Origin: a virus
Lineage: Duplodnaviria; Heunggongvirae; Uroviricota; Caudoviricetes
DNA length: 64,000 nucleotides
Virus record (IMG/VR): IMGVR_UViG_3300025896_000022
Direction: 5' to 3' (one strand)
Part shown: positions 20,930 to 53,051 of the stretch, one piece after another
Position numbering within the stretch: the stretch's first letter is position 1
How the letters are laid out: every line of letters begins with the position of its first letter
Notes under the pieces: generated by a model
Seen by the model: only the letters and a program-made list of their open reading frames with translations
What the model was told of the DNA's origin: nothing
Database searches by the model: none
Position numbers and translations under genes: made by a program

Positions 20930-21019
20930 ACAAGTGTATGTTATTATAGACAATATCTTATCTATTGTCTATAATAACACACATTAATAACTAATATATT
21001 AGTTAAAAACCTAACAACA

Positions 21020-37588: not shown

Positions 37589-37606
37589 CCAATAAAATAA
37601 AATAAT

Positions 37607-37744
37607 ATGATTTGTAATAACTGTAAAACTACATTAAGTTGTGGTTGTCAACAAAGAAAAGCATCTGATGGTACTATGGTATGTAGTAGTTGTTTATCAA
37701 ATTATGAAACTACTTTAGCAAATAATAAAAACTTGAATAAGTAA
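37607..37744 (+). CDS. small Cys-rich (zinc-ribbon-like) protein of 45 aa, not in the ORF track
   Basis: MICNNCKTTLSCGCQQRK…MVCSSCLSNYE has a CxxC…CxC…CxxC pattern and fills a gap between genes. Confidence 0.3.
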   Translation: MICNNCKTTLSCGCQQRKASDGTMVCSSCLSNYETTLANNKNLNK

Positions 37745-37968
37745 TGGATCCTTTAACTCGTATTAATGAAATATTTGCTCAAACTATATACGCTAAATAC
37801 AAGCGTAAAAGATATGGTTTAAAAAATTGTTCTGCTACTATAACTGAAGAGTTAGCAGATGATTTACGCAATTTAGTTATACGTGCAAAAGAAATGGAAA
37901 ATTGTAGTTGTGTTATGAGCAGTGGTTGTTCATTATCAATAATTGAAGAAAAAATTAATACATTATAA
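37744..37968 (+). CDS. hypothetical protein
   Basis: 74-aa ORF. Confidence 0.3.
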   Translation: MDPLTRINEIFAQTIYAKYKRKRYGLKNCSATITEELADDLRNLVIRAKEMENCSCVMSSGCSLSIIEEKINTL

Positions 37969-39559
37969 AATGGCAATACCAGTAACTAATCCAGGTTCTA
38001 ATAGAGATAACTGTCCTAAAATATCTACATCATGTGTGATATGGCAAGGACCAGATATTCCATGTATTGACTTATGTGGTGGTGATTCAATTGATGAAGT
38101 TGTATTTAAACTTGCTACTTTATTATGTACTATTTCTGATGGTTTGTTAGATGTATCAACTTTAGATTTTCAATGTTTAGTTGATTTGGAAACTGAACAA
38201 ATACCTACTAATTTGCAAAGTACTATACAACTTATTATATCACATATATGTAATAATATAAATGTATCTTCTTTTGCAAGAGTAGCATCATTTACTTCTA
38301 CTGGTGAAGCAATATTAGTATTACCTGAATGTTTATATTATACTGATGAAAATAATGATTTAATTACATCATTACCTCAATCAGATTATAATACTTATGT
38401 AGCAAATAAAGTATGTGATGTTATATTAATAGTAAATACGCATACACAAAGTATTGGTAATTTAACTGGTAGAGTTAATACTTTACAAGCATTAGTTGAA
38501 TCAATAGAACCATTATCTATACCAGATATTTATGTTGTATCACAATGTGCTTCAGATTTTTTACCTGATCGACAAATATTAATACAAGATGCTTTTACTA
38601 ATTTAGAAAAAAACTATTGTGATTTTAAATCATTTATTGGTACAAGTACTTCTTTGTATAATAGTATAAATAGTCAAATACCAAATTTATCTAGTTTTCG
38701 TCAATTGGTATATCCTGATTTACAAATGGGTAATTTAGTTGATTGGGTAGCAACTCCTACACGATTAAGTGATACTATAACAAATTTATGGTTAACTATT
38801 GGTGATATAAGAACTAAGTTTCAATCTTATTTAGATGAGATAGTTACAATACCATGTATACTTGCTTTACCTGAAAATGTTGCAGTTACAACTATTGCAT
38901 CTAGTTATGCTACATTAGTATTTGATTCATCTTCACTTGGTGGAATTGAAAGACCATTATCATATAAAGTTGATATTTATAATACTAGTGATACATTGTT
39001 TACAACACCATTATTTTCTCAAATTGTAAATGAAACAGATTTTCAAAAAACTATTAATATATCAAGTGTAAATATTTTACCAGCAACTTCTTATAGAATT
39101 AATGTATCTTCAATTTATACTTGCGGTGCATCAGTTCCTGCATTTATTATTTCAGAATTATTAACTGCAACTAATTTATATACATTAGATTATACAAATA
39201 CTGGTGTTACTAGCACTGTTAGTTGTGGTGGAGATAGTTATGATTTAGAAGTTCAAACTGTAACATTAAGTTTAATTACTATAATTGGTTCTATACCTAA
39301 AGTTAATGACTACACTGAACCATTACAAATAACTATAAGATATGAATCAACTAGTTGTGGTTTACCAGAAATCAGTTATACTGATGTAACTTATGAAATA
39401 GCAGTTGGTGATAGTGATGTTATTTTTGATTATATTTCTAAACAACCAGTTATATGTTTAGATAAATCTTGTTCAGATGAAATAACAACTCTTGCATGTG
39501 GAGTATATATTTCTAAACCTGGAATTGAGTTTACTGATAAATTATTACCTTGTGTATAA
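37943..39559 (+). CDS. tail fiber or adhesin family protein carrying the shared N-terminal Cys motif
   Basis: The N-terminal 'SCVIWQGPDIPCIDLCGGDSIDEVVFKLATLLC' is shared with ORFs 39579 and 41072. Size is 538 aa. Confidence 0.45.
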   Translation: MKKKLIHYKMAIPVTNPGSNRDNCPKISTSCVIWQGPDIPCIDLCGGDSIDEVVFKLATLLCTISDGLLDVSTLDFQCLVDLETEQIPTNLQSTIQLIISHICNNINVSSFARVASFTSTGEAILVLPECLYYTDENNDLITSLPQSDYNTYVANKVCDVILIVNTHTQSIGNLTGRVNTLQALVESIEPLSIPDIYVVSQCASDFLPDRQILIQDAFTNLEKNYCDFKSFIGTSTSLYNSINSQIPNLSSFRQLVYPDLQMGNLVDWVATPTRLSDTITNLWLTIGDIRTKFQSYLDEIVTIPCILALPENVAVTTIASSYATLVFDSSSLGGIERPLSYKVDIYNTSDTLFTTPLFSQIVNETDFQKTINISSVNILPATSYRINVSSIYTCGASVPAFIISELLTATNLYTLDYTNTGVTSTVSCGGDSYDLEVQTVTLSLITIIGSIPKVNDYTEPLQITIRYESTSCGLPEISYTDVTYEIAVGDSDVIFDYISKQPVICLDKSCSDEITTLACGVYISKPGIEFTDKLLPCV

Positions 39560-39578
39560 CAATTAAAAATTAATAAAT

Positions 39579-40394
39579 ATGTCTTGTCCAAATAATAATT
39601 GTGATTCATCTTGTACTTGTAACCAATGTTGTCCACCAGTACTACCACCAATTCCACCTACACCTCCAAGTTGTATAGGAACGGAATGTGATGAAATATA
39701 TAATGCTGCATGTGTAACATATACAGGTAATACTATTGATTGTTTAAATATACCAAATGGTTCATCATTAAATAATATTATTCAAGTATTAGCACAAAAA
39801 CTTTGTGATTGTGATACAGGTAGATGTTTAAGTCCATTAGAATTATTTTTTAATAGAATTGCTTCAATAAATAATAATGCAAAAGTTTACAATGAAAATT
39901 CTAATGTAAAAGATATACTTAATACTATATTTGAAAAAGGAGGATTAGTTTTTAAAAAATGTAAATACTGTTGTCCTAATAGTTCATTTTATGCACTTTC
40001 ATTAAATGCATCAAATAGAGATGAAATTTATGAGTTATGCAATAATGGTCTTGGATATCCTATTCAAGTTCCTTTATTAAATAGTGAACTAAATTATATT
40101 TCATGTGCAACAACATTTTTAACTTTGTTTGATGATACTTTAGGAAACAATGTATCAGCATTAACACCATCAACAATTTATGAATTTGGAGGCTTTAATG
40201 GTAATTCTGGATTGTGTGAATTAAATAAAATTTTACCATCTTTATTTACAACTGAAGAAATTACTTCTTTAATGTATAAGATAAATGAACGTGATTTGTT
40301 TGTGGCATGTGATACAGTTAATGGAAATATTTTTATTGGTAGTCGTACAAATTATAAAGATTACTTATGTCAACTTGAAAATAATTGTAAATAA
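39579..40394 (+). CDS. tail fiber or adhesin family protein carrying the shared N-terminal Cys motif
   Basis: 'ACVTYTGNTIDCLNIPNGSSLNNIIQVLAQKLCDC', preceded by a Pro-rich linker. Confidence 0.45.
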   Translation: MSCPNNNCDSSCTCNQCCPPVLPPIPPTPPSCIGTECDEIYNAACVTYTGNTIDCLNIPNGSSLNNIIQVLAQKLCDCDTGRCLSPLELFFNRIASINNNAKVYNENSNVKDILNTIFEKGGLVFKKCKYCCPNSSFYALSLNASNRDEIYELCNNGLGYPIQVPLLNSELNYISCATTFLTLFDDTLGNNVSALTPSTIYEFGGFNGNSGLCELNKILPSLFTTEEITSLMYKINERDLFVACDTVNGNIFIGSRTNYKDYLCQLENNCK

Positions 40395-40416
40395 TAATTA
40401 AAAAAAATAAATAACC

Positions 40417-41052
40417 ATGAGTTCATTTGTAAATCCTATAATAAAGTATATTCAACAAATTATTGCAATTAGTCAAAATGATGAAATAAGCATTTCTCAA
40501 GCTTTTGCAAATAATAATTTTATTGAAATTACAAATTCATCTGATAATATAGTACCAGATAATTCAACATTATATTTAATAAGTCCATTTTTATATAATA
40601 ATGTTTATATATTAGAACAAACACTTACATGTTTACAAAATGGATTTGGTGTTCCTTTAAATGTACCATTTAACTACGAATCACAAAAAATATCAAATGA
40701 TCAAGTATCAATAAAAAATATTAAAGATTTACATATAACTACAACAGCATGTAATACTTTTAGTTCAAGTTCTTTAGAATTAAATGAATTGATTTTAAAT
40801 AAATATTGGAATTATCCAATAACTGAACGTGGTGGATATTATGAATATGGTTTAACTGAATTTAATACATTTAGTAATGAATCAGGATTATCTGATATAA
40901 TTACATATTTAAAAACATTACCTACTAGTGTTAATGAATATAATACATTACAATATGTATTAGAACAATTTGTTAATGGAGGATTTGCAGCATTTAATTA
41001 TAATGATACATTATATGCAGGTACACCAGCAGGTTTTTGTAATTGGTATTAA
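40417..41052 (+). CDS. structural-module hypothetical protein
   Basis: 211-aa ORF. Confidence 0.4.
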   Translation: MSSFVNPIIKYIQQIIAISQNDEISISQAFANNNFIEITNSSDNIVPDNSTLYLISPFLYNNVYILEQTLTCLQNGFGVPLNVPFNYESQKISNDQVSIKNIKDLHITTTACNTFSSSSLELNELILNKYWNYPITERGGYYEYGLTEFNTFSNESGLSDIITYLKTLPTSVNEYNTLQYVLEQFVNGGFAAFNYNDTLYAGTPAGFCNWY

Positions 41053-41071
41053 TTAAATAAAAAAAATAATT

Positions 41072-43294
41072 ATGTTTCCAAATATTCCATGTACTGATTG
41101 TGATCCATGTCCAACACCAGTTGTACCAGTTCCAATACCAGATTTGTCAGAATTAGTTTGTAGTATTTTCTATGATGACACATGCGTGTTTTATTCTGGG
41201 GAAGATATTCCTTGTGCAGGTATACTAAATGGAATGTTTTTAAATGAAGTATTACAAATATTAAGTAATACTTCATGTACTTATTGTGGTGGCATACCAA
41301 AAGTATTACAACCATTAAAATTAACAAAAGATGTTTGTGGTAGAAAAAGTGATAGTCCATCATATGAACTAGTATATGTATATAGACCAACAGGGGTTTT
41401 TTCTGATGTAATAAGTAATAATGATATAATTTATGAATCAGATAGAATAACAAAATATGTAGGTAATAATTTAATTTATGGCGCAAGAACATTTGATGCA
41501 AGTAGACTTACAATAATAAATATTAATGACAATGGTATTGTAACTTTAAATACAACAATTGCTTCTATAACACCAGCACCTGAATCATCTAATAATGAAT
41601 TTAATACTTGTGTTGATGCAACAGTAAATGATTTAATATTATCTATAATTGGAACTGATATAAAAATTTATGATGATCCTTATTTAGGAAATCCATTACC
41701 ATTAACTGATGTATTAACTGAAACATATTATTTTGCAACACAAACTTTGTATGGTTGTGAAAGTACTTTTACTTGGATTTTAGTTAGTGTTGGTACAGTA
41801 TACCAACCTGAAGCAGATTCACCTCAAACATTTTGTACAAATTCAACAGTGGCAAATTTAGTTGCATATGGTGATAATATTAAATGGTATACAGCATCAA
41901 CAGGTGGTACATTATTAGCAAATACAACTCAACTAGTTTCTGGTGTAACATACTATTGTTCTCAAACTACAGGAACTTGTGAAAGTGAAATAAGAACAGC
42001 AGTTCTTGCAACAATTGGAATACCATCAACTCCTATTGCAGTTAATCAAACATTTTGTTCTGTACCAACGCCAACAATTGCAGACTTAGTAGTGACAGGT
42101 ACAACTGGTACAGTAAAATGGTATACAACTGCAATTGGTGGAACAGCATTATCATCTGGAACTAATTTGATTTCAGGAACTACTTATTATGTATCACAAA
42201 CTATAGGTTCTTGTGAAAGTGCTAAAAAATCAATTTCTATTATAGTAACTACAAAAGTAACACCATTATTTACACAAGTTTCTAATGTATGTTCAGGTGT
42301 AACAATGATTCCATTACCAACTACATCAACAAATGGTATTACAGGAACTTGGTCTCCTGCACTAAATAATACAACAAATACACTATACACGTTTACTCCA
42401 ACTACAGGATTGTGTGCCAATACAACTACAATGACAATAGGAGTTGATACAGTTGCTACTCCAACAGTATCTGCACAAACATTTTGTGGTGGTGGAACTG
42501 TAAGTAATCTTGTTGCAACTGGTACTAATTTAAAATGGTATAATGTTGCAACTGGTGGAACTGCTTTATATAGTTCTGTACCTTTAGTAACAGGTACATA
42601 TTATGTATCTCAAACACTTGGAATTTGTGAAAGTGCAAGAGTATCTTGTGCAGTTACTACATCAAATTTTGTTTTTTCATTAAGAAATGCTGAACATACA
42701 ACATATAGTGATGGAACACCAATACCACAAATAACAAATAATACAGAATGGACAACTGACCCTAGTACTGGATTACCTAGAACAACTGGTGCTTGGTGCT
42801 ATTATAATAATGATCCTGCAAATGGTGCTGTTTATGGCAAACTGTACAATTGGTATGCTGTAGCAGGAATATATAATGCAGCATCACTAGCAAACCCAGT
42901 ATTAAGAAAACAATTTGCACCAAATGGTTATCGTGTTCCAACATTTACGGAGGGATATAATTTTATTAATTGTTTAGGTGGAACATCTGTTGCAGGAGGA
43001 AAGATGAAAGAAGCAGGTACAACACATTGGCAAAGTCCTAACACAGACGCTACAAATAGTAGTGGTTTTACTGGCTTACCTGGAGGTTATCGTAATTACA
43101 ATGGTCCATTTTATAATATTAATTTAAATAATTATTATTTTTTTTCTACAGAAAATGAATTACATGATTCAAATGGAGTAGTAATAGAGATTCAGGGTGC
43201 AGTAATGTATTTAGATTATCGTTATTCAGTAGTAAATTTGTCAGGAGCTCGTAAAAGTAATGGAATGTCAATAAGATTAATCGCAGATATTTAA
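41072..43294 (+). CDS. tail fiber protein with an N-terminal Cys motif, about 4 tandem Ig-like repeats and a C-terminal FISUMP (Fibrobacter succinogenes major paralogous, TIGR02145-like) domain
   Basis: Repeats follow the pattern '(V/I)KWY(T/N)..TGGT.L……L.(S)G.TYY.SQT.G.CES.' The C-terminus 'GAWCYYNNDPANGAVYGKLYNWYAV…GYRVPT…GGKMKEAGTTHWQSPNTDATNSSGFTGLPGGYR' matches the FISUMP consensus. Confidence 0.6.
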   Translation: MFPNIPCTDCDPCPTPVVPVPIPDLSELVCSIFYDDTCVFYSGEDIPCAGILNGMFLNEVLQILSNTSCTYCGGIPKVLQPLKLTKDVCGRKSDSPSYELVYVYRPTGVFSDVISNNDIIYESDRITKYVGNNLIYGARTFDASRLTIININDNGIVTLNTTIASITPAPESSNNEFNTCVDATVNDLILSIIGTDIKIYDDPYLGNPLPLTDVLTETYYFATQTLYGCESTFTWILVSVGTVYQPEADSPQTFCTNSTVANLVAYGDNIKWYTASTGGTLLANTTQLVSGVTYYCSQTTGTCESEIRTAVLATIGIPSTPIAVNQTFCSVPTPTIADLVVTGTTGTVKWYTTAIGGTALSSGTNLISGTTYYVSQTIGSCESAKKSISIIVTTKVTPLFTQVSNVCSGVTMIPLPTTSTNGITGTWSPALNNTTNTLYTFTPTTGLCANTTTMTIGVDTVATPTVSAQTFCGGGTVSNLVATGTNLKWYNVATGGTALYSSVPLVTGTYYVSQTLGICESARVSCAVTTSNFVFSLRNAEHTTYSDGTPIPQITNNTEWTTDPSTGLPRTTGAWCYYNNDPANGAVYGKLYNWYAVAGIYNAASLANPVLRKQFAPNGYRVPTFTEGYNFINCLGGTSVAGGKMKEAGTTHWQSPNTDATNSSGFTGLPGGYRNYNGPFYNINLNNYYFFSTENELHDSNGVVIEIQGAVMYLDYRYSVVNLSGARKSNGMSIRLIADI
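42680..43294 (+). repeat. FISUMP-domain coding segment, copy 1. It has a roughly 70-80% nucleotide-similar paralogue at 51520..52060.
   Basis: Aligned by eye: tggtgcttggtgctattataataatgatcctgcaaatgg… against tggagcatggtgctattataataatgattctgcaaataa…. Confidence 0.5.
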
Positions 43295-43335
43295 TATGAT
43301 ATGGTTTGTTGGTTTTCCATATTGTATGAGAACTT

Positions 43336-43366
43336 CCCTCGTGTAACAGCGAGGGTTGTTTTTTAT
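43336..43366 (+). terminator. rho-independent terminator CCCTCG-TGTAACAG-CGAGGG-TTGTTTTTTAT
   Basis: Read directly, about 40 nt after the stop of the fiber gene. Confidence 0.65.
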
Positions 43367-43385
43367 AATAAAAAAATAACTACAT

Positions 43386-44678
43386 TTGTATAACTCTAAA
43401 TATTTAATTATGAGATTAATTAGTAAATTGGTCTATCAAGGACTTACAAGAAAAAATTCAAATCAAAAAGAAGCTGATAGATTAAAATTATCTTTAAATG
43501 ATTACATGTCAATTAAAAAAAATACTTTAGATATTATAAAAAATATGACTGAAGATCAAGTAATGGATGATGTATTTTTTTATAACATAGACAAACGTGT
43601 TTTAATACAACAACCCCAAGAATCTAAAGTGACTGAAATACACCAAAATCTTGAAACTGGCACAAGTAAAATTTCAGCAATTTCTTCTACAGAACCTAAG
43701 ACACCAGAAGAAATAATAAAACTATTAGGAATAGATATAACACAATGGAAATTATCACAATTCTGGAACAAAGAACAAAATAATAAATGGTTAGTTTCTG
43801 CATTAATAACAAGAGTTCCATTACAAGAAAAAATACAAATATCATTTCTACAAGAATTAGCGACTTATAAATTACCAATATTTCCAAAACTAGACCCTGC
43901 AATTATTAATTCAGATTCATCTGAAAAAGTTTGTGGGGTTATTTCATTACAAGATTTACATTTTGGTAAAGTAGGTAATGAAAACATGAATGACATTATG
44001 GAAAAAGCAGTGCTATACCTAGTTGGTAAAGCATATCGTAATTATCATATTGAAAAAATTATATTTATTATTGGACCAGATACTTTAAATATGGATACTT
44101 TTGATGGTACTACAACAAAAGGAACTCCTGTTGAAAATTCTGAAGTAGCAACTAAAGCATATGTAAAAGCATTTGATGCTGTATGTAGTGCAATTACAAC
44201 ATTAAAGAATTTTTGTGAAAATCTTGAAGTAGTATTTATTCCAGGTAATCATGATAGGTTATCTTCTTATCATATGATACATGCAGCATCCCAAGTATTT
44301 AGACAACAATATGATATAACTTTTAATGTAGAATATGCTGAACGTAAAGTAATTACTTATGGTAAAAATATGATTGCTGTTGAACATGGTGATGCTTCTT
44401 CTAAAAATAATCCTTTAGTGTATGCTGTTGAGTTTCCTGATCAATGGGGAAAATCAAATCATAGAATGTTATATACAGGGCATTATCATGGTAGAAAAAC
44501 TAAAGAAGTAATTACTGAAAATGAAGAACAAGGATTTGTTACTAGAATCATACCTGCATTAACTTCATCAGATTATTATCATTATCATAATAAATGGACT
44601 GGAAATCAACGTTCTGCTATTATGCACATACATCATGCAGATAAAGGATTAATATCTGAATTTGTATACTCAGTATAA
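43386..44678 (+). CDS. calcineurin-like metallophosphoesterase (MPP superfamily) embedded in the tail module
   Basis: Motifs in order are 'DLHFG', 'IIGPDTLNMD', 'FIPGNHDR', 'VEHGD' and 'GHYHG'. This is the canonical MPP arrangement (D.H…GD…GNH[DE]…H…GH.H). Confidence 0.55.
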   Translation: MYNSKYLIMRLISKLVYQGLTRKNSNQKEADRLKLSLNDYMSIKKNTLDIIKNMTEDQVMDDVFFYNIDKRVLIQQPQESKVTEIHQNLETGTSKISAISSTEPKTPEEIIKLLGIDITQWKLSQFWNKEQNNKWLVSALITRVPLQEKIQISFLQELATYKLPIFPKLDPAIINSDSSEKVCGVISLQDLHFGKVGNENMNDIMEKAVLYLVGKAYRNYHIEKIIFIIGPDTLNMDTFDGTTTKGTPVENSEVATKAYVKAFDAVCSAITTLKNFCENLEVVFIPGNHDRLSSYHMIHAASQVFRQQYDITFNVEYAERKVITYGKNMIAVEHGDASSKNNPLVYAVEFPDQWGKSNHRMLYTGHYHGRKTKEVITENEEQGFVTRIIPALTSSDYYHYHNKWTGNQRSAIMHIHHADKGLISEFVYSV

Positions 44679-44738
44679 TATATATCACCAATTGTTTTAA
44701 TATGTACATAATTTTTAGTAAATTCTTAATGTAAACAA

Positions 44739-45314
44739 ATGTCAAACAAACCAGATTTAAATGCACCAAGATTTAGAAAAACAAGTGAAGGTACTCTTAA
44801 TATGGAGTTTATAAAATTGTTAAAACAAAAAGTACCATCAAGTGTAAATTTATCAAATGAACAAATTAAAAATATAATTAAAACGTTCAATGAAAATATT
44901 TGGAAAACTGTTATAGATAAACGCGATGGCGTTGAGTTACCTGAATTAATTGGTCATATGTTTATAGGTACTTGTCCAAAATCAAAAAAGAAAAATATTG
45001 ATTTTAAAGCAAGTGAAAACTATAAACAAACTGTACAACATAGAAATTGGGAAAGTGATCAACATTTGGCAAAAATATTTTTTACAAATTTTGGTAGTAA
45101 ATATAGATTTAAAAATCATGAGTTATGGGCATTTAATGCAACTAGAGATTTTAGTAGAGAAGTTGCAAGAGTATATCCTTTTACTTGGAAAAAATATTTA
45201 CAAATAGATCCAAAAGTTAAAATATCAAATATCTATAAAACAAATAGTTATAGATTAGAAAAAAAAGATACTGAACAAGAACAACTCAAAGATTATGATG
45301 AGTTCGATTTATAA
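44739..45314 (+). CDS. structural-module hypothetical protein
   Basis: 191-aa ORF. Confidence 0.4.
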   Translation: MSNKPDLNAPRFRKTSEGTLNMEFIKLLKQKVPSSVNLSNEQIKNIIKTFNENIWKTVIDKRDGVELPELIGHMFIGTCPKSKKKNIDFKASENYKQTVQHRNWESDQHLAKIFFTNFGSKYRFKNHELWAFNATRDFSREVARVYPFTWKKYLQIDPKVKISNIYKTNSYRLEKKDTEQEQLKDYDEFDL

Positions 45315-45322
45315 ATAATATT

Positions 45323-45994
45323 ATGACAACAATAGGAGAAGTTTTATCAAGAGTACGTAATCAGATAAAAGCAGTTAAACAAGATGCTTTTTTAACTGAT
45401 AGATTTTTGTATTCTATGATTATGAAACATGCAAAAATGCTTGTTCGTAGACAAGATATACAAAATAGAATAATGAAGTTTAATAGTGTATTTCAAGTAT
45501 TAAACTATGTTGAACTAATTGAAGTAGATAAAGCTGAATCTAAATGTCATGGTATTACATCAGGTTGTACGTTTAAGCGTACAAAAGATAAACTACCTAA
45601 CTTAATGGAAGGACACTGGGGACCTATATTTAGAAGTGTATCTTCATTAGATTTGTCAGAAGAAATTTCACCAACTTATTCTATTACTTATGAAAAAATG
45701 GCAAATCAAAAAACATTTAAATATAACAATAAAAAATACTATTGGTATATTGATGGTTATTTATATTTTCCAAATTTAGAATGGGATGCTGTACGCATAG
45801 AAGGAATTTTTGAAGGTGATATTAGTTCATATAATTGCGATGTAACTGATGATTGTTTATATATACAAGATAAAAGTTTTTCAATACCAGAATATTTATA
45901 TGCTGAAATTGAACAAAATGTAGTAAAAGATTTAGGAGCAATGATTAGTGTTCCATCTGATACTCAACAAGATAATAGAAATATAATAAATTAA
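45323..45994 (+). CDS. structural-module hypothetical protein, possibly baseplate
   Basis: 223-aa ORF. Confidence 0.4.
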   Translation: MTTIGEVLSRVRNQIKAVKQDAFLTDRFLYSMIMKHAKMLVRRQDIQNRIMKFNSVFQVLNYVELIEVDKAESKCHGITSGCTFKRTKDKLPNLMEGHWGPIFRSVSSLDLSEEISPTYSITYEKMANQKTFKYNNKKYYWYIDGYLYFPNLEWDAVRIEGIFEGDISSYNCDVTDDCLYIQDKSFSIPEYLYAEIEQNVVKDLGAMISVPSDTQQDNRNIIN

Positions 45995-45998
45995 TACT

Positions 45999-47102
45999 AT
46001 GGCATTAGTTGAACCACAATACAGAACTTTTGATGATCTTATAGACAGTGTCAAAATAGATTTATATACATGGGATCTTGAAGGATTAATTAATCCACAA
46101 CAACTTATTAAAGTTGCAATGCGTGTTAATTATGATTTAGGTTTGCGTATAAATCAATCACGTTCAAAAGCAATAGAAATACATAAAGGCAAAGGTAAAA
46201 TGCCTGATGATTTTTATGTACTTAATTTTGCATTAGTATGCGAAGAAAGACAAGTAGATGAAATACCAACATATAATAAAACTTATACTGAAGGTATTTT
46301 AGAAGGTGTAACTCTTGCTGAAAACTTTTTAGCAGATAAATTTGTTAATCAATCTACAACAATAGTAGATATTACGCAAGGTGCAAATATAATCAATCAT
46401 CAATTACATACACAAAACATTATTGTACAAGCATTTGCAAACGATGGTTCTGTATTAGATTTTGATGTAACAATAATTGATTCTGAAAATATTACAATTG
46501 ATTCATTATCAATGACAACTATACCAAATGTAAAAGTAATCATAATGGGAGCAAAAATTAGTACAATAGGTACTGGTTCTGGTTCTTGTCCTGCATTACT
46601 TGATTGTGCATCTAATGGTACACCGCAAGTACATTATGTTACAAATGGTAGAAGAGTTGATAGTAAAAAATTAATTCCTTTAAGTATGCAAAAATCTAAA
46701 TCAATTACTGATGATTGTTTTAATTTAAATACAAAAAGTCATTATGATGCATTTTTAAGAAATGGATATTTACATGTTAATTTTGATGAAGGTGTTGTTT
46801 ATGTAAATTATCAATCTTTAATGGAAGATGATGATGGTAACTTATTAATACTTGATCATCCTTATTGTAATGAGTATTATGAATATGCAATTAAACAACG
46901 TATTTATGAGAACTTATTTATGAGTGGTGAAACTGTATCAAATCATTTACAGTTAATGGAACAAAAATTACGTGCTGCAAGAACAATTGCTTTATCATTT
47001 GTAAATACTCCAGATTTTGGTGAAATGAAACGTACATGGGAAATGAATAGAAGAGCACAATATCACAATTACTACAATATGTTTAAGAGTAAAGTTTATT
47101 AA
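45999..47102 (+). CDS. structural-module hypothetical protein, possibly baseplate
   Basis: 367 aa. Its stop overlaps the start of the giant gene. Confidence 0.4.
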   Translation: MALVEPQYRTFDDLIDSVKIDLYTWDLEGLINPQQLIKVAMRVNYDLGLRINQSRSKAIEIHKGKGKMPDDFYVLNFALVCEERQVDEIPTYNKTYTEGILEGVTLAENFLADKFVNQSTTIVDITQGANIINHQLHTQNIIVQAFANDGSVLDFDVTIIDSENITIDSLSMTTIPNVKVIIMGAKISTIGTGSGSCPALLDCASNGTPQVHYVTNGRRVDSKKLIPLSMQKSKSITDDCFNLNTKSHYDAFLRNGYLHVNFDEGVVYVNYQSLMEDDDGNLLILDHPYCNEYYEYAIKQRIYENLFMSGETVSNHLQLMEQKLRAARTIALSFVNTPDFGEMKRTWEMNRRAQYHNYYNMFKSKVY

Positions 47103-47104
47103 TC

Positions 47105-50100
47105 ATGAGTGAAGATAAAAATAATTCAGGTGCTGCACCGCAGTTAATGAATAGTTTTATGAAAGGAATGAATAAAGATAACTCTGATGTTTTTGTTCCT
47201 GAAAGTGTTTGGATAAATGCTATTAATGCTGTAACTAATTCACATAATGGTGAACTTGGTTCAATTGGTAATGAGCAATCAAACTTATACTGTGAAACTT
47301 TTCCTTATCAGGTAATTGGTATATTAAATAAATATAAAACTGAATGGGTAGTATTTTCAACAGATAATACAAGTTCAGAAATTGGTTTATTTGATGAAAG
47401 TACTTGCGCGTATATTTCTTTAGTTAATGATCCTTGTTTAAATTTTAGTACATTTAATTTAATAACTGGTGCAGTTAAAATGAATTATGATTGTACATAT
47501 TCTGCATACTGGCAAGATAATTTGAATCCAGATAGAACAATGAATTTGGATCCTACACGCATACCATATATTTGTACTCCAAGTTCAGATCCAGATGCAT
47601 GTGGTGTTGAAGTATGTAGTGAAAATTTAGATTGTGATAAATTAAGATTACATCCATTAGTAAAACAAGCATGTGTTAAAGTAAGTAAATCTACAGGATC
47701 AGGTCAATTAAATAATGGTACATATCAAGCAGTTATTGCATATTCTGAAAATGGAATAAAATTGACTGATTATAGTATGCCAAGTAATCCACAAGGATTA
47801 TGGGATCATTCTGGTATTGGTGGTTCATTAGACATAACAATAACTGATTTAGATCAAAACTTTGAAGAGTTTCAATTAGTTGTAATTGGTACTGTAAATC
47901 AACAAACAACAGCAAAGATTATTGGATATTATTCTATTAATCAATCACAAATACATTTAGATTTAATTAATGCTTCATTAATAACTGCAGACCTTTCTAC
48001 TATACCATTAAAAAAAGTAGTATATGAAAAAAGTGATAAAATGTTTGATATTGGTGGTTACTTATTACGTAGTGGTGTAACATCTCAACCATTTTTTAAT
48101 TATCAACCATTAGCAAATACTATAAAAGTAAACTGGGTTGCTGTGCAATATCCGTCAGATTACTATTGGAATGGTGGTAATGAAGTTGGATACATGCGTG
48201 ATGAAGTATATTCATTTTTTATTAGATGGGTATATAAAACTGGTGCACGTTCTGCATCATTTCATATTCCTGGAAGAGTTTCTCGTACAGCAGATATGAC
48301 TGACATTGATGTACGAGCAAATGATATTTTAGAATCAACAAGAAATAAATGTTGGCAAGTATACGATACTTCAACAATTACATCAACTTCACATGTAAGA
48401 AGACCTGATGGTGGTATTATTATTGCAAAAGGTGATATGGCATATTGGGAATCAACTGAGTCATATCCAAATAGTAAACCTGAAATATGGGGTGAATTAT
48501 GTAATAAACTAATTAGACATCATAAGATGCCATCTAATGAAACTACTCATATACATGATACAACAGGTGAATTCATAAATATATTAGGTGTTGAGTTTAC
48601 AAATATATCTCAACCAATAGATATACATAATAAACCAATAACTGATATTATTGGATATGAAATATTAAGAGGTTCTCGTGAAGGTAATAGAAGTATATTA
48701 GCAAAAGGTATATTTAATAATATGGTTGAGTATCCTTTAGATGGTGTAAAATCTAAAAAAGGATTATATCAAAACTATCCATATAATGATGTCAGTAGTG
48801 ATCCTTTTATGGAAACACCTGCGTCATTAGTATATAAAAAAGATATATTCTCTTTTCATGCACCTGAAAATAACTTAGTTAAACCATATGTTGGTAATGG
48901 AGGATATGTAAGAATTTATACTGAAGAAATTGGTGAATCAGTTACTACACCAGAACTTGCATACATGCATCCTAAGTTTAAATTTATACATGAAGATGCA
49001 TTTGGAGCTGTTGCTGCTATTGCTGCTGGATATGCATTACTTGAACTACTTGGATCAACTGATACTAAATCAAGTTCTGTAGGTCATTTTACAGCACCGC
49101 TTTCTGGAGAAATAACTTCAACAATAATTCCATGGGTTACAACAGCGGCAGGTGGAAGTAATCTTGGGGAATCAAATGCTGTCGAAAGAATTCCAACATT
49201 AAACTTTGATTCAGAAAGTAGCACAACTAAAAAATCAGGAACTGCGTCAATATATTCAGATTTTTTAATTCATAATGTAAATTCTGATACAAATTCTGCA
49301 ACATCTGGACCAGGTGGTATTGCACAAGGTGTTACTATTGCAGCTACAGCTTTAGAAATATTTACTGCAATAGGTCAAGGAATTATGACTTTTAATAAAG
49401 TATTTGATATATGGTTAAAAATAATATATGATATTATTTCATATAAAGATTATGTTATACAATTAAATAGTCATAGTTTTTATGCATCACATGATCATGT
49501 ACAAAATATAAATGTACCATTTGGAATACAACCTTCTTTTAATAGAACTATAAAATCAAATGCTTCTAAATATATTGGTTCAGGATTACAAGATTTTAGT
49601 AATTCTCACAAAGTTAACAATGTTAATAGAACAAAATTTTTAGCATTACAATTAGATAATGAATTACCATTTACGTTAAATACTGATGAGTCAAGAAATT
49701 TAATTCCAGATACAAATAATGCATTTGTAACATTTAAAGATTCTGGTAAACGTAATGGTTGGACTGTATCTTATTATGGTGCAATTAAATATGATTATCA
49801 AAATCAATATGGACAATTATATGCAATAACACAAATACCTATTAATTCATGTGTTTATGATATTACTGATAATATATCTTTAAAACATAGCTCATCTCAA
49901 ATATTTGGTGGTGATGTTTATATAAATAGATATACTGAAAAAAATCCATATTATTTTTATAACACTTGGTTAACTGATGTTACTAATGGTACAACGTGGA
50001 ATTATCAAAATTATATTAACGGACCACAACCTGCTTATTGGTTAAATTCTGAATTATATGATGCTTCAAAATTTGGCATACATATAAATTGGCATTTAAT

Positions 50101-52060
50101 ACCAACTTTTGATATAAATTCACCTGGAGATTATTATAATTTTCATGGTAAAGAGGCAACTGGAACTCCAAGTACAAGTTTTCAAAATGCATGGATGTAT
50201 TTGTTTAATAATGGTATACGTGATTTTTTTACTGAATCAGAATTAAACCTTGCATTTAGAGACTATGGTGAAAATAGTTGGGAGAAATTTTATGATCCAG
50301 TTGGTGATTCATTTACTGATATATCATTAATGTTTAGAGCAGACTTAATAACAAAACCTACATACTATGAATATGACTTATCACTCAGCGCATCCAAATT
50401 GTACAGTAACTTCTCATCTTGGTCAAATCTCCTTCCAAGGGACTATGATCCTGCCATCTATACAACATGTTTTGAATACTACCCAAGAAGGGTTATCTAT
50501 TCATTACAACAGCAAGAAGGACTTAAAAGAGATAACTGGAGAAACTATTTACAATTTAACTATAGAGACTTTGAAGGAAAAGTAAATACTTTTAAATCAT
50601 TAAATGCACAAGGTTCTTTAATATTATTTGAAGATACTGAACCTATGCAGTTTGTTGGTGTTGATACATTTCAATCTACTGCTGGTGTAAAATATACAAC
50701 TGGAGATGCTGGATTGTTTCAACAAAATATGCAATCTATTGTTAATGCAGATGACTCATTTCAATATGGTACTAGTATTTCTAGTAAATCTGTTATCAAT
50801 ACACCATATGGATTATTTTGGGTATCACAAAATACTGGTAAAATATTTAATTATGCAGGTAGTGGTATTACAGATATATCTATTGGTGGAATGAAGTATT
50901 GGTTTTTACAAAATATACCATCACCATTATTAAAAGTATATCCTGATTTTCCATTATATGATAATGTAGTAGAAGGTATTTCTATTCAAACTGTATTTGA
51001 TTCACAATATGAATTAATATATTTTACTAAAAAAGATTATTTACCTAAACCTGAATTTGCAAATATTAAAGACTGTTTAGTTTTTGTACCTGGTGAAGGA
51101 TTTTTTATTAATGCTTCTATATGTCCAGGATTTAATACAGGAACTACACAAGTAAAAACTTGTAAACCTGGATTTACATATAATCCACAAACTGATTTAT
51201 GTGAGAAAGTTGTTACAACAAATATATGTCCAACTGGTTCCACATATCAAAATGGTTCATGCGTCATAGTTAATGAATATCGCGCAGTATGTTGTGATAC
51301 AGTTGCGCCAACTGTAACTTTAGTACAATCATTTTGTACTGCAGCTACTGTTGCAGATTTAGTTGCAACAGGGATAACAATTAAATGGTATAATGTTGCT
51401 ACAGGTGGTATTCCATTATTAACAACAACTCCGTTAAATACTGGTAATTATTATGCATCACAAACAATTGCTGGTTGTGAAGGACCAAGATCATTAGTTA
51501 ATGTAACTTGTTTTTCATTTATTTCTGCACCAAAAAATTTAGATGTAACAAATTATCGTAATGGTGATGCAATTCCTCAAGTAACTGATCCAACTGCATG
51601 GTTAAATCTAACTACTGGAGCATGGTGCTATTATAATAATGATTCTGCAAATAATACAACTTATGGAAAATTATACAATTGGTATGCTGTTAATGATCCA
51701 AGAGGATTGGCTCCAATTGGATGGCATATTCCAACTGCAACTGAATATAATACATTTTTTGCTTGTTTAGGAGGAAGTGGAATAGCAGGAAGTAAAATGA
51801 AAGAAATAGGTACTAGTCATTGGACATCTCCTAATACAGGTGCAACAAATAGTAGCGGTTTTACTGGTTTACCTGGTGGGTATCGTACTAGTTATAGTTT
51901 ATTTTACAATATTAATACTGATGGTAGTTGGTGGGGTTCATCAGAAACTAATACAACAAGTGCATGGAATTTTTTAATGAATTATAATCAAACATACGCA
52001 CTAAGTTCTGCTAGTGATAAAAATGCAGGTTTATCTGTTCGTTTGTTTAAAGATGTTTAA
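47105..52060 (+). CDS. giant tail fiber or baseplate-associated adhesin of 1651 aa, with a C-terminal Ig-like repeat and FISUMP domain
   Basis: The C-terminus '…IKWYNVATGGIPLLTTTPLNTGNYYASQTIAGCEGPRS…GAWCYYNNDSANNTTYGKLYNWYAVNDPRGLAPIGWHIPTATEY…GSKMKEIGTSHWTSPNTGATNSSGFTGLPGGYR' is paralogous to the C-terminus of ORF 41072. Confidence 0.55.
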   Translation: MSEDKNNSGAAPQLMNSFMKGMNKDNSDVFVPESVWINAINAVTNSHNGELGSIGNEQSNLYCETFPYQVIGILNKYKTEWVVFSTDNTSSEIGLFDESTCAYISLVNDPCLNFSTFNLITGAVKMNYDCTYSAYWQDNLNPDRTMNLDPTRIPYICTPSSDPDACGVEVCSENLDCDKLRLHPLVKQACVKVSKSTGSGQLNNGTYQAVIAYSENGIKLTDYSMPSNPQGLWDHSGIGGSLDITITDLDQNFEEFQLVVIGTVNQQTTAKIIGYYSINQSQIHLDLINASLITADLSTIPLKKVVYEKSDKMFDIGGYLLRSGVTSQPFFNYQPLANTIKVNWVAVQYPSDYYWNGGNEVGYMRDEVYSFFIRWVYKTGARSASFHIPGRVSRTADMTDIDVRANDILESTRNKCWQVYDTSTITSTSHVRRPDGGIIIAKGDMAYWESTESYPNSKPEIWGELCNKLIRHHKMPSNETTHIHDTTGEFINILGVEFTNISQPIDIHNKPITDIIGYEILRGSREGNRSILAKGIFNNMVEYPLDGVKSKKGLYQNYPYNDVSSDPFMETPASLVYKKDIFSFHAPENNLVKPYVGNGGYVRIYTEEIGESVTTPELAYMHPKFKFIHEDAFGAVAAIAAGYALLELLGSTDTKSSSVGHFTAPLSGEITSTIIPWVTTAAGGSNLGESNAVERIPTLNFDSESSTTKKSGTASIYSDFLIHNVNSDTNSATSGPGGIAQGVTIAATALEIFTAIGQGIMTFNKVFDIWLKIIYDIISYKDYVIQLNSHSFYASHDHVQNINVPFGIQPSFNRTIKSNASKYIGSGLQDFSNSHKVNNVNRTKFLALQLDNELPFTLNTDESRNLIPDTNNAFVTFKDSGKRNGWTVSYYGAIKYDYQNQYGQLYAITQIPINSCVYDITDNISLKHSSSQIFGGDVYINRYTEKNPYYFYNTWLTDVTNGTTWNYQNYINGPQPAYWLNSELYDASKFGIHINWHLIPTFDINSPGDYYNFHGKEATGTPSTSFQNAWMYLFNNGIRDFFTESELNLAFRDYGENSWEKFYDPVGDSFTDISLMFRADLITKPTYYEYDLSLSASKLYSNFSSWSNLLPRDYDPAIYTTCFEYYPRRVIYSLQQQEGLKRDNWRNYLQFNYRDFEGKVNTFKSLNAQGSLILFEDTEPMQFVGVDTFQSTAGVKYTTGDAGLFQQNMQSIVNADDSFQYGTSISSKSVINTPYGLFWVSQNTGKIFNYAGSGITDISIGGMKYWFLQNIPSPLLKVYPDFPLYDNVVEGISIQTVFDSQYELIYFTKKDYLPKPEFANIKDCLVFVPGEGFFINASICPGFNTGTTQVKTCKPGFTYNPQTDLCEKVVTTNICPTGSTYQNGSCVIVNEYRAVCCDTVAPTVTLVQSFCTAATVADLVATGITIKWYNVATGGIPLLTTTPLNTGNYYASQTIAGCEGPRSLVNVTCFSFISAPKNLDVTNYRNGDAIPQVTDPTAWLNLTTGAWCYYNNDSANNTTYGKLYNWYAVNDPRGLAPIGWHIPTATEYNTFFACLGGSGIAGSKMKEIGTSHWTSPNTGATNSSGFTGLPGGYRTSYSLFYNINTDGSWWGSSETNTTSAWNFLMNYNQTYALSSASDKNAGLSVRLFKDV
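51520..52060 (+). repeat. FISUMP-domain coding segment, copy 2
   Basis: see 42680..43294. Confidence 0.5.
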
Positions 52061-52079
52061 TAAATAAAATAATAATAAA

Positions 52080-53051
52080 ATGGCATGTACTTGTACAAAT
52101 CCAACTGATACTCAGGTAGTTAGAAATGGTATTACATATTGTCAACAGTTAACTACTGTTGCAGCAAATCCTTGTCCTGTTGGTTGTAGTTTTAATATTG
52201 CAACTAATTTATGTACATGTACTGAAACTGCTGAACCAATTGTAGAAGCATTACTTATACCAGTAAATATAAAAGATTATTTAAATGAAATTAATTGGAC
52301 AATAAGTTATGATCCAAAATTAAAAATATGGTTATCATTTCATGATTGGCATCCAGAATGGTTGATACCATCTAATGATCATTTTTTAACTATTAAAACT
52401 AAAACTGATTTAGATTCATTAGGAGGTATAATTCCTGGTGCATTACCTGAAACAAAAATATGGAGACATAATGTTAGAACAGATAGTTATGTAAACTTTT
52501 ATAATGATAATTATCCATGGGAAGTTGAGTATCAAATAGCTACACCAAATGCAATTACTACTTTAAGAAGTATTGAATATACACTTGACGTATATAAATA
52601 TTTTAATAATGGTAAAGATATTTTTCATAAATTAGATCAAAATTTTGATAGAGTTGTGGTATATAATTCTGAACAGATTTCTGGTAACTTATTATTAAAT
52701 TTGAAAACTAAAAATAATCCACTTGATTTATTAAATTATCCATCACCATCAGCAAATGGTATTGATATTCAGTTTAGTAAAGAAGAAAATAAATTTAGAT
52801 TTAATCAGTTTTTTGATGTTACAAATGATAGAGGCGAATACTCAGGTGTTCAAGTACCTATGTGGGTAACTGCACCTGATGGTTATCATAAAGTATTAAA
52901 TCCTGTTAATACAGATTATTTTAAAATTGCAACTGAGCATAAAAAGTTTAGACACTATGGTAATAGATTAATATTACGTAAAAACATAAGTGGTGAAAAC
53001 AAAATGATATTGAAATTTGTTAATAATAAATATTTACTAAGTCCTCGATAA
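52080..53051 (+). CDS. structural-module protein with a Cys-rich N-terminus
   Basis: MACTCTNP…CPVGCSF…CTCTE. Size is 323 aa. Confidence 0.4.
   Translation: MACTCTNPTDTQVVRNGITYCQQLTTVAANPCPVGCSFNIATNLCTCTETAEPIVEALLIPVNIKDYLNEINWTISYDPKLKIWLSFHDWHPEWLIPSNDHFLTIKTKTDLDSLGGIIPGALPETKIWRHNVRTDSYVNFYNDNYPWEVEYQIATPNAITTLRSIEYTLDVYKYFNNGKDIFHKLDQNFDRVVVYNSEQISGNLLLNLKTKNNPLDLLNYPSPSANGIDIQFSKEENKFRFNQFFDVTNDRGEYSGVQVPMWVTAPDGYHKVLNPVNTDYFKIATEHKKFRHYGNRLILRKNISGENKMILKFVNNKYLLSPR

Follow-up and report, generated by a model that had tools for sequence, protein, structure and literature searches.

FISUMP domains in a modular tail-fibre family and a split muzzle gene of an environmental crAss-like phage

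Several receptor-binding proteins with a conserved N-terminal attachment domain are found in multi-tailspike phages such as CBA120 and in the K1-5/SP6 adaptor systems. In Bacteroides phage crAss001 the tail ring proteins R2 and R1 (gp43) are followed in gene order by the muzzle gp44, the hexameric gatekeeper of the tail tip. The gp44 family is large and its members vary in length via insertions into the distal domain, and a role in cell contact has been proposed for this “crass” domain (Bayfield et al., 2023, PMC10172136); the hubs of crAss001 are stabilised by disulfides (PMC10172136). Cellulophaga phage phi4:1 encodes gp042 (phrog_37948) as a single 2289-aa ORF whose product is present in virions by MS/MS proteomics, according to its record annotation. 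In the fibres of Zeta crAss-like phages a stem at the N-terminus is followed by Ig-like spacers and finally by a lectin at the C-terminus (PMC12386605), and Fib_succ_major/DUF1566 domains of C-type-lectin fold have been published as phage target proteins (PMC8143477, PMC5758913). In bacteria, lipoprotein signals have been reported for FISUMP proteins (PMC5758913).

The window analysed here, a 64-kb stretch of DNA, belongs by its gene content to an environmental crAss-like phage whose host is probably a Bacteroidota bacterium; its major capsid protein matches PF23898, and terminase and portal genes lie alongside. We consider that the region from 37.9 to 53.1 kb encodes the host-recognition part of the tail, and we give this best explanation as a whole, conjectural steps included, a probability of roughly 0.65.

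A fibre family with a common N-terminal module

The fibre genes and their modules are arranged as follows.

37970..39559, plus strand: fibre protein 1 (529 aa), 57% identical to L002:1269-2876
38012..38128, plus strand: anchor module of fibre 1, C24-C62 in 37943 ORF numbering (alignment; BLASTP E 5e-5 and 6e-4; HMM match)
39579..40394, plus strand: fibre protein 2 (271 aa), 51% identical to L002:2899-3723
39687..39806, plus strand: anchor module of fibre 2, C37-C76 (BLASTP, alignment, HMM match)
40417..41052, plus strand: 211-aa protein without the anchor module, 44% identical to its L002 orthologue
41072..43294, plus strand: fibre protein 3 (740 aa), with Cys/Pro leader, anchor, stem, Ig-like array and C-terminal FISUMP
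41159..41278, plus strand: anchor module of fibre 3, C30-C69 (BLASTP, alignment, HMM match)
41603..42661, plus strand: Ig_7 (PF19081) array of fibre 3, residues ~178-530 (three Pfam stretches, E 8.2e-19)
42683..43294, plus strand: C-terminal FISUMP of fibre 3, residues 538-740, stop codon included (TIGR02145 58.6 bits, PF09603 90.9 bits)

The products of ORFs 37943, 39579 and 41072 share a 40-aa N-terminal module with four cysteines, which lies behind Cys/Pro-rich leaders, a likeness already seen in the initial annotation and confirmed by pairwise BLASTP (E 7e-7, 5e-5 and 6e-4) and by alignment with the three orthologues in the metagenomic contig L002. Positions C30, C38, V39, G43, I46, C48, G54 and C69 are invariant among these six proteins, and the module follows the pattern C-x6/7-C-V-x3-G-x2-I-x-C-x5-G-x14-C. 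The start of fibre 1 is likely the ATG at 37970 (MAIPVTNPGS...), in agreement with the L002 orthologue; with the TTG at 37943 given by the ORF lister, the gene would overlap the ORF before it, which runs to 37968. The N-terminal ~290 aa of fibre 1 are conserved widely in related phages while its C-terminal part is more variable, and of the 336 IMG/VR stretches with a match to its N-module pattern, 324 hold a confirmed relative. An anchor profile matches ORF N-termini in about 40 of the 79 FISUMP-bearing viral loci, and in related phages the anchor is joined to tail-collar-like tips, collagen or SprB repeats. The L002 orthologue of fibre 3 keeps residues 1-158, followed by an unrelated C-terminal part. 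These counts and the replaced tip in L002 support the modular family that had been proposed, whose members share an N-terminal anchor while their distal parts can be exchanged.

Anchor-bearing relatives match the solved tail fibre 9qgo (E 9e-4) and, weakly, T4 gp10 (E 0.12), and the module is apparently confined to a single clade of environmental crAss-like phages. The arrangement is like that of CBA120 and K1-5/SP6 in its conserved N-terminal plug, its variable distal domains, its several paralogues side by side and an evolution that outpaces the core genes; the anchors of those systems are not known to resemble the 40-residue four-cysteine module. Against L002 the fibre genes are 44-57% identical and the neighbouring core genes 80-90%, and the fibre genes evolve much faster than the core. 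The anchor would act as a common plug that docks each fibre on the tail, either at the hub/collar or on another fibre, possibly locked by disulfides by analogy with crAss001, and the distal parts of the three anchored fibres would be interchangeable. The docking site itself is a guess, since no similarity between the module and the crAss001 gp22 N-terminus was detected and the window yielded no recognisable tail-hub homologue.

Fibre 2 consists of a Cys/Pro-rich leader, the anchor and a C-terminal domain without an assigned fold. The C-terminal ~60 aa of the neighbouring 211-aa protein resemble the fibre 2 C-terminus (hhalign probability 78%, E 1.9e-5, and a weak BLASTP match), and this protein may be an accessory or distal fibre subunit. 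In fibre 3, the repeats of the form KWY..ATGG..YY.SQT..CE that had been noticed ahead of the C-terminal domain are real and correspond to Pfam Ig_7 (three stretches, 68 bits), with BLAST adding a fourth, degenerate copy (repeats at residues 180-232, 252-304, 326-385 and 470-524). The Ig-like array comprises four Ig_7-type repeats and one other Ig-like segment; DNA repeat families D2, D3, D7 and D14 cover its Ig_7 part, which is likely a flexible spacer.

A muzzle gene divided at an insertion hot-spot

Downstream of the fibres lie the ring genes and the predicted muzzle.

45323..45994, plus strand: tail ring protein R2 (PF25702 CrAss_Ring_2, E 2e-24; BLASTP against crAss001 gp40, E 5e-6)
45999..47102, plus strand: tail ring protein R1 (PF24228 CrAss_Ring_1, E 1.3e-9)
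47105..52060, plus strand: predicted muzzle N-terminal fragment (1651 aa), placed by R2-R1-muzzle gene order, gp44, phrog_37948 and phi4:1 gp042
51122..51262, plus strand: cysteine-rich mini-repeats (CxxGxxY[NQ]...C) just 5' of the inserted cassette
51305..51508, plus strand: Ig_7 domain of the muzzle cassette, residues 1401-1468 (PF19081 25.4 bits, cut-off 27.3)
51533..52060, plus strand: C-terminal FISUMP of the muzzle N-fragment, residues 1477-1651, stop codon included (modelled C-type-lectin-like fold)
52058..52079, plus strand: junction of the split muzzle gene (TAA TAA, more TAA codons, then ATG)
52080..53051, plus strand: predicted muzzle C-terminal fragment (323 aa), corresponding to phrog_37948 positions 2047-2244 and phi4:1 gp042 residues 2031-2245

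The product of ORF 47105 had been counted among the fibres and adhesins, a placement that is ruled out by its lack of the anchor module, its position immediately 3' of R2 and R1, the same order as in crAss001, and its match to gp44 (residues 18-388 against gp44 residues 9-394, BLASTP E 5e-5, ~22% identity). By sequence it is a homologue of the gp44 muzzle. It resembles gp44 in directly following R1 and in its detectably similar N-terminal region; unlike gp44, a single 1371-aa ORF without FISUMP, VWA or Ig_7 insert, the window muzzle is split into 1651 and 323 aa, and its first product ends in an Ig_7-FISUMP cassette. The hhalign comparison of ORF 52080 with gp44 is insignificant (E 0.016, probability 3%). 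Most of the length of 47105 and 52080 is collinear with the phi4:1 protein gp042, which covers residues 435-1377 of the former and then 43-275 of the latter with order kept; gp042 differs in being one ORF, ~25% identical, with a different segment of ~230 residues at the window's cassette and split.

Residues 1-1381 of ORF 47105 form the conserved body and residues ~1395-1651 the added cassette: against L002 identity is 71% up to residue 1381 and the sequences are unrelated beyond, while the muzzle of L009 retains Ig_7-FISUMP at 47% identity. ORF 52080, which is in the +1 frame relative to 47105, is the counterpart of the last ~260-300 residues of single-ORF muzzle proteins. The relative P0128 reads straight across the junction in a single ORF (62% identical), 103 of the 150 best 52080 homologues (representatives) have at least 1300 aa, fitting a fused gene, and the long homologues compared or listed (e.g., P0128, P0130, P0132, P0134) match at their C-terminal end. 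The muzzle is fused in 19 of 23 IMG/VR loci.

A further copy of the CxxGxxY[NQ]...C mini-repeat opens ORF 52080, and together with those in 47105 it marks an insertion hot-spot. The equivalent stretches match CBM_14 at 21.3 bits in P0128, just under the 22.1 cut-off, and at 23.0 bits in L262, just over it. At this site fused relatives carry a VWA domain (P0132 and P0134) or an in-frame FISUMP (P0155), and L262 has a DUF5122 propeller at about the same position, as placed by the preceding CBM_14-like repeat rather than by collinear comparison. The muzzle here is best read as encoded by two ORFs, with the cassette and the stop codons at the hot-spot; because P0155 carries its FISUMP in-frame, the split is not structurally required.

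Identity, fold and spread of the FISUMP domains

The FISUMP assignment of both C-termini holds: TIGR02145 scores 58.6 bits for ORF 41072 and 81.4 bits for ORF 47105 (curated cut-off 41.65), and PF09603 90.9 and 121.4 bits (cut-off 33.9). The single Ig_7 copy of ORF 47105 falls just under its cut-off and is clearly homologous to the last copy in 41072. In scoring above the curated cut-offs the phage domains are like bacterial FISUMP of Bacteroidota, Ignavibacteria and Fibrobacter, with homologues 55-67% identical in Flavobacterium, Chitinophagaceae, Ferruginibacter and Ignavibacteria MAGs; the closest relatives found of the fibre 3 domain are in Flavobacteriaceae genomes (53-55% identity). Such domains are common in Bacteroidota, and their Ig_7 partner is also typical of Bacteroidota surface proteins. 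The bacterial proteins are often short, and the top matches carry one or two FISUMP domains; in contrast, the phage domain is fused to virion proteins without signal peptide context.

The structure model of the domain (pLDDT 96.4) has a C-type-lectin-like fold, as in known phage receptor-binding variable proteins, so that setting alignment to lectin folds against the FISUMP assignment, as was done earlier, was a false opposition. The modelled fold class and C-terminal lectin position are shared with Mtd, TvpA, the DUF1566/Fib_succ_major DGR targets of Bacteroides phages and the Zeta crAss-like fibres, and the latter also resemble fibre 3 in the order of stem, Ig-like spacers and lectin head and in their location in the tail-fibre region (PMC12386605). 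To call FISUMP on phage fibres unusual was an overstatement given at least 291 FISUMP-encoding stretches in IMG/VR, the published C-type-lectin-fold targets (PMC8143477, PMC5758913) and the Zeta crAss-like fibres (PMC12386605). FISUMP on phage structural proteins is not exotic, and lectin-tipped fibres have been described in crAss-like phages; what is unusual here is a muzzle gene split in two where the lectin module sits. Unlike the lectin-fibre systems, one of the window's copies is on the muzzle.

Alternative readings and a proposed mechanism

That most muzzle relatives are single ORFs would suit a split produced by faulty assembly or sequencing, or a muzzle decayed to a pseudogene. However, L002, L009 and L263 show the same split, with its TAA-rich junction, multiple stops and conserved start M(A/T)CTC, which makes four independent metagenomic contigs whose C-terminal fragments are 27-76% identical (L001/L002 76%, L009 66%, L263 27.5%), and both fragments are conserved as proteins against L002 (47105 71-88%, 52080 76%); conservation of the split and of both fragments already largely refutes such a reading, to which we give next to no weight. 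The initial annotation had instead taken both proteins for fibres, with Ig_7-FISUMP modules duplicated in the genome and feeding homologous recombination and fibre shuffling. The order of Ig_7 and FISUMP is indeed equal in both, the alignment has E 1e-66, and the 70-80% nucleotide identity cited for the copies is found in short ungapped cores (78% over 108 nt, 72% over 211 nt), but it does not extend to the whole: codon-aligned DNA is 62-63% identical, third positions 58%, blastn between 42680-43294 and 51520-52060 gives 67.6% over 346 nt, and the longest exact match is 21 nt. Moreover, the 47105 domain is 62-67% identical to bacterial domains and only ~51% to its counterpart in 41072, found at rank 185 of 194 by similarity to it; this distance ranking indicates that the two are probably not sister sequences. 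With the muzzle homology of ORF 47105 also against the two-fibre reading, the copies appear old and divergent rather than a recent duplication and recombination substrate, and we consider this model quite unlikely; a 12-residue insert shared by the L009 muzzle FISUMP and the window's fibre copy hints at a past exchange between fibre and muzzle.

A further possibility is that the FISUMP domains serve as the variable proteins of a diversity-generating retroelement (DGR), with its reverse transcriptase and template repeat placed beyond the 64-kb window. This is very unlikely: the scanned window ORFs yielded no reverse transcriptase, neither FISUMP 3' end has a third near-identical repeat in the window, mismatches between the two copies have no adenine bias, and bacterial FISUMP domains are mostly not DGR targets. 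The window domain is a canonical FISUMP, unlike the DGR-target lectins with their weak DUF1566/FISUMP match. Some phages carry Ig-like and lectin-like decorations that have an accessory role in adherence, such as T4 Hoc and the crAssphage BACON repeats, and Ig_7-FISUMP could likewise hold virions to polysaccharide in the environment, to particles, or to mucus or biofilm matrix and raise encounter rates, leaving true receptor recognition to other fibres or the crass domain. FISUMP is just one of several alternative inserts at its site, and its presence in only 1 of 80 fibre-1-related loci makes it dispensable for the clade; on the other hand, the module occupies two first-contact positions, one at a fibre end and one at the tail tip, the fibre genes change much faster than the core genes, and close relatives exchange the module as they do host-range determinants. 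We regard tethering as unlikely, if the least strained of these alternatives.

We return to host recognition by the tail. In fibre 3 the Ig_7 chain would hold out the FISUMP domain as a binding head, and the phage would display lectin-like heads at two places, fibre and tail tip. The fibre FISUMP may bind first, and reversibly, to a glycan or glycoprotein on the host surface, and the muzzle FISUMP may then bind at close range and help to trigger opening. The cassette would sit at an insertion hot-spot on the surface of the distal crass domain, and the last ~300 muzzle residues, made separately from ORF 52080, would assemble in trans with the N-fragment. The split would give a free C-terminus, at which the tip module could be exchanged much as fibre genes exchange their 3' ends. 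After the muzzle body, the tip module is FISUMP in the window and in L009 and an unrelated module in L002.

The structural gene block and the split muzzle

The window, with a G+C content of about 29%, carries on its plus strand a set of structural genes by which the phage is recognized as crAss-like:

23625-26888 (+), large terminase
26920-29649 (+), portal
(+), major capsid protein (Pfam Crass_capsid, E = 7e-32)
45323-45994 (+), tail ring protein R2 (PF25702, E = 2e-24)
45999-47102 (+), tail ring protein R1 (PF24228)

Its closest contigs are the uncultivated IMG/VR viruses L001/L002 and L009, and the Cellulophaga phages phi4:1 and phi17:2 are remoter relatives. When the window proteins were compared with the tail-hub, fibre and cargo proteins of crAss001, the comparison picked up R1 and R2 only. 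The crAss001 genes run from R2 (gp40) through R1 (gp43) to the muzzle gp44, a hexameric gate of roughly 1 MDa at the tail tip whose distal "crass" domain has been proposed to contact the cell (PMC10172136). A muzzle of this type is built from a ring-joining domain, a 7-bladed propeller, two Ig domains and the crass fold. ORF 47105 occupies the corresponding position, directly 3' of the R2-R1 pair, beginning 3 nt past R1. In a pairwise test residues 18-388 of its 1651-aa product align with gp44 residues 9-394 (E = 5e-5, 22% identity), and a second segment matches gp44 at E = 0.069. The protein also belongs to PHROG families of large virion structural proteins that include phi4:1 gp042, which proteomics places in virions, and its N-terminus lacks the cysteine module of the neighboring fibre proteins. 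The initial annotation had taken 47105 for a fibre; its place after R2 and R1, its matches to gp44 and gp042 and the missing module instead lead us to assign it, from sequence and gene order, as a probable muzzle.

The muzzle gene is divided in two. Both phrog_37948 and phi4:1 gp042, the latter a single ORF of 2289 aa, match residues ~435-1377 of 47105 and then residues 43-275 of the 323-aa ORF 52080, with the order kept. When 1.84 billion representatives were searched in full with HMMER, 52080 had 656 matches; proteins of at least 1300 aa make up 103 of the best 150, and in the matches listed or compared the similarity lies at the C-terminal end of the long homologues. In the single-ORF homologue P0128 (62% identical) the equivalent of 47105 residue 1375 runs directly into that of 52080 residue 29, and the muzzle is fused at 19 of 23 IMG/VR loci. 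The 52080 profile meets the gp44 C-terminus at the right position, in a match that is not significant (E = 0.016, probability 3%). Together, the collinear alignments indicate that a single ancestral protein is here encoded in two pieces, 47105 and 52080.

At the junction TAA TAA is followed by three further TAA codons and an ATG, with 52080 in the +1 frame; this run of stops and the conserved ATG lead us to reject a fusion of the two ORFs by stop-codon recoding or frameshifting. Nor is the split an artefact, since L001/L002, L009 and the distantly related contig L263 show it too, M(A/T)CTC being the conserved start. That insertion of a FISUMP domain (Fib_succ_major) caused the split is an explanation weakened by two relatives: the L002 muzzle is split while carrying another module, and the homologue P0155 carries FISUMP in-frame.

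Several other genes lie in or beside the structural block. The terminase (1087 aa) appears to bear an intein, with LAGLIDADG_3 at residues 721-778; its residues ~484-850 match PHROGs of an unrelated primase, helicase loader and ribonucleotide reductase, inteins being common to unrelated proteins and so giving rise to such cross-family matches. At 34784-35227 (+), amid the capsid and tail genes, lies a DUF5856 protein whose PHROG name is "starvation-inducible transcriptional regulator". A metallophosphatase or DNA-repair-exonuclease-like gene at 43386-44678 (+; phrog_704, E = 1e-49), 81% conserved in L002, has the fibre genes on one side and the ring genes on the other. The next gene after the muzzle, 53053-57519 (+), encodes a 1488-aa protein (phrog_24249, "tail protein") that forms a mosaic when set beside the 2162-aa counterpart in L002 (L002:16465-22953), with blocks of 48-76% identity rearranged or repeated.

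FISUMP domains: fold, ancestry and distribution

The presence of FISUMP at the C-termini of ORFs 41072 (740 aa) and 47105 was borne out by profile searches, both copies scoring above the curated cut-offs of TIGR02145 (41.65 bits) and PF09603 (Fib_succ_major, 33.9 bits): 58.6 and 90.9 bits for 41072, 81.4 and 121.4 bits for 47105. Whereas bacterial FISUMP domains typically occur in secreted proteins or lipoproteins with an N-terminal signal, both copies here are C-terminal modules of phage structural proteins. The Ig-like repeats noted ahead of them are also present and correspond to Ig_7 (PF19081, the CHU_C-associated Ig-like domain). ORF 41072 has three recognized copies (68.1 bits over three stretches against a threshold of 27.3) and one degenerate copy, and 47105 has one, which at 25.4 bits falls slightly under the threshold and aligns with those of 41072.

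A model of the muzzle FISUMP domain built on a 122-sequence alignment reached a pLDDT of 96.4; a first model of Ig_7 plus FISUMP from 27 sequences (pLDDT 58) was discarded as too poor. The confident model resembles solved C-type-lectin-like domains of the DGR variable-protein/FGE-sulfatase branch, and the matches listed include the Legionella Lcl C-terminal domain (7.3), an FGE paralogue (6.9), the DUF1566-containing Bacteroides fimbrial protein 4eps (6.7), a Bdellovibrio fibre tip (6.4), Mtd (5.2), PorK and the invasin InvE. FISUMP thus models as a C-type-lectin-like fold, in agreement with the DGR literature, where Fib_succ_major is grouped with DUF1566 targets, and the opposition that had been drawn between a FISUMP identity and a lectin fold falls away. 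No PDB chain was found by sequence searches with 47105, 41072, 53053 or the FISUMP profile.

The two copies had been described as duplicated and 70-80% identical in nucleotides. Identity of that order is confined to short cores, with 78% across 108 nt and 72% across 211 nt; blastn gives 67.6% over 346 nt, the codon-aligned identity is 62-63% (58% at third positions) and no exact match exceeds 21 nt. The 47105 copy shares 62-67% identity with FISUMP domains in MAGs of Bacteroidota and Ignavibacteria from freshwater and groundwater, whereas the 41072 copy, about 51% identical to it, ranks 185th of 194 in similarity; the sequences closest to the 41072 copy are from Flavobacteriaceae (53-55%). We reject a recent duplication given this low identity and the bacterial domains standing nearer to the 47105 copy, and regard the copies as paralogues of long standing or as modules acquired separately from the host phylum. 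Targeting of FISUMP by a DGR can likewise be rejected for the visible 64 kb of the genome: there is no DGR reverse transcriptase among the scanned ORFs, no further repeat of the FISUMP 3' ends within the window and no adenine bias in the mismatches between the copies.

Among deposited phage genomes in INPHARED, tblastn detected FISUMP in 4 of 50,697 records, and BFVD holds three annotated viral FISUMP proteins. The INPHARED count alone would suggest rarity, an impression corrected by at least 291 FISUMP-encoding stretches in IMG/VR. In about 20 of the 79 FISUMP-bearing viral loci the FISUMP gene is followed, a few kb on, by a muzzle homologue. The tail fibres of Zeta crAss-like phages combine an N-terminal stem, Ig-like spacers and a C-terminal lectin (PMC12386605), so that the design of the 41072 fibre is already known in kind. 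The use of FISUMP as a phage binding head, which had been called unusual, is not new in kind; what we regard as modestly novel is a muzzle that is split and bears a cassette, together with the fibre anchor found across the clade. Overall, the initial annotation was essentially right in what it observed and partly right in how it interpreted it.

The fibre genes and their putative four-cysteine anchor

The N-terminal module reported for three adjacent proteins was recovered as a 40-residue putative anchor shared by fibre 1 (listed from TTG 37943, ATG 37970 being the likelier start), fibre 2 (39579) and fibre 3 (41072), with pairwise BLASTP E-values of 7e-7, 5e-5 and 6e-4. In an alignment that includes three L002 orthologues the positions C30, C38, V39, G43, I46, C48, G54 and C69 are invariant. 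The proteins thus share a conserved N-terminus and differ in their distal domains, as members of a fibre family do; ORF 40417 lacks the anchor and has a C-terminus similar to that of fibre 2. Core genes are 80-90% identical to those of L002 and the fibre genes 44-57%, with 41072 alignable over residues 1-158 only. Faster divergence than core genes is the usual signature of host-range genes, and the divergence of the fibre genes is consistent with it.

In fibre 1 the pattern reads CVIWQGPD, which is present in 336 IMG/VR stretches, 324 of which are confirmed relatives, on contigs of up to 136 kb; among 80 such loci, 38 carry between two and four ORFs with an anchor, and FISUMP is sporadic in this clade (1 of 80). 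Of the 79 viral loci with FISUMP, about 40 have ORFs whose N-termini match the anchor profile; three of these ORFs are themselves tipped by FISUMP. A word-indexed homologue search with the profile yielded only seven proteins, mostly fragmentary. In some related phages the anchor is attached to collagen or SprB repeats. Other anchored tips match the solved tail fibre 9qgo (E = 9e-4) and, weakly, T4 gp10 (E = 0.12) through a tail-collar motif; these tail-collar-like tips are not recognized by Pfam, and the PDB profile search is weakly positive.

Disulfide-stabilised hubs have been reported for crAss001 (PMC10172136), and by analogy the cysteine richness of the anchor would fit hubs of that type; no similarity was found between the anchor and the crAss001 gp22 N-terminus or hub proteins. 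Directly 5' of the fibre genes, the stretch 37022-37968 (+) comprises the gene of a conserved cysteine-rich protein of 188 aa (84% identical to L002) and, after it, two small ORFs of 45 aa (with eight cysteines) and 74 aa. These genes may encode a fibre-docking hub; their proteins have no detectable similarity to crAss001 gp38 or gp39.

Module exchange at the split site and features elsewhere in the window

The split site, flanked by small cysteine-rich repeats, is an insertion hot-spot. VWA domains occupy it in P0132 and P0134 and FISUMP, in-frame, in P0155; the VWA of P0128 lies elsewhere, at a second site downstream of this one. In L262 a DUF5122 propeller lies at about this position, placed via a preceding CBM_14-like repeat rather than by collinear comparison. 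L002 is 71% identical to 47105 up to residue 1381, after which it carries an unrelated module of ~250 residues, and L009 retains Ig_7-FISUMP at 47% identity. A 12-residue insert (AAVGIHNSASLTDPSLRKQIAP) is common to the L009 muzzle FISUMP (L009:6100-7041) and the window's fibre FISUMP (42683-43291) and absent from the window's muzzle FISUMP, a hint that fibre and muzzle have exchanged the module in the past.

How crAss-like phages recognize their receptors is still little understood. A bolder reading, with a probability of about 0.35, is that the split muzzle is a modular receptor-binding protein whose C-terminus, freed by the split at a surface hot-spot, takes up host-derived cassettes, with 52080 completing the crass domain in trans and the tip partly setting host range. 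In the mechanism that we consider most likely, the three fibres would plug into the tail via the shared cysteine module, and fibre 3 would be the first to touch a host surface glycan or glycoprotein, by way of a lectin-like head that a flexible Ig_7 arm holds out. The N-terminal muzzle fragment would display another lectin head, unlike the first and present six times at the tip should the muzzle be hexameric like that of crAss001, while the 52080 product would complete the distal domain and the free C-terminus would permit cassette exchange. An accessory role in adherence for the Ig_7-FISUMP modules seems to us improbable.

If the modular reading is true, host range would be set in part at the tail tip through cassette exchange, not by point mutation or a DGR, and a protein hitherto viewed as a conserved gatekeeper would have been turned modular, with Ig_7-FISUMP here and another module in relatives. 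Contact of the muzzle with the cell surface has so far been a proposal only, and the region yields concrete, testable candidates: lectin-like heads on a fibre and on the tail tip, and a defined muzzle hot-spot that lineages fill with VWA, propeller or FISUMP. The naturally split muzzle could also serve to test two-chain assembly of the distal crass domain, and the anchor, marking a large clade of environmental crAss-like phages, could aid fibre-gene annotation. Current concepts are left unchanged; known modular fibre and lectin themes are extended to a new virion position.

Elsewhere in the window, a full-length tmRNA gene lies at 20573-20933 (+), just 5' of the plus-strand block leading into the structural genes (Rfam RF00023 at 85.2 bits, where the gathering score is 47; E = 1.3e-31), with the tag peptide ADQVSANMSKVFSLINADVEELEIAA given by ARAGORN. 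Further upstream are a GIY-YIG/NUMOD homing endonuclease (1761-2549), an SPFH/Band 7 protein (4434-5282, -), a weak VWA match (5519-7372, -; 22.1 bits, under the 23.8 cut-off) and a MoxR-type AAA+ ATPase (8506-9780, -). A 130-nt direct repeat of 73% identity (16417-16546 and 17504-17633) lies inside the neighboring minus-strand ORFs 16329-16817 and 17416-17928, which are probably paralogous small genes.
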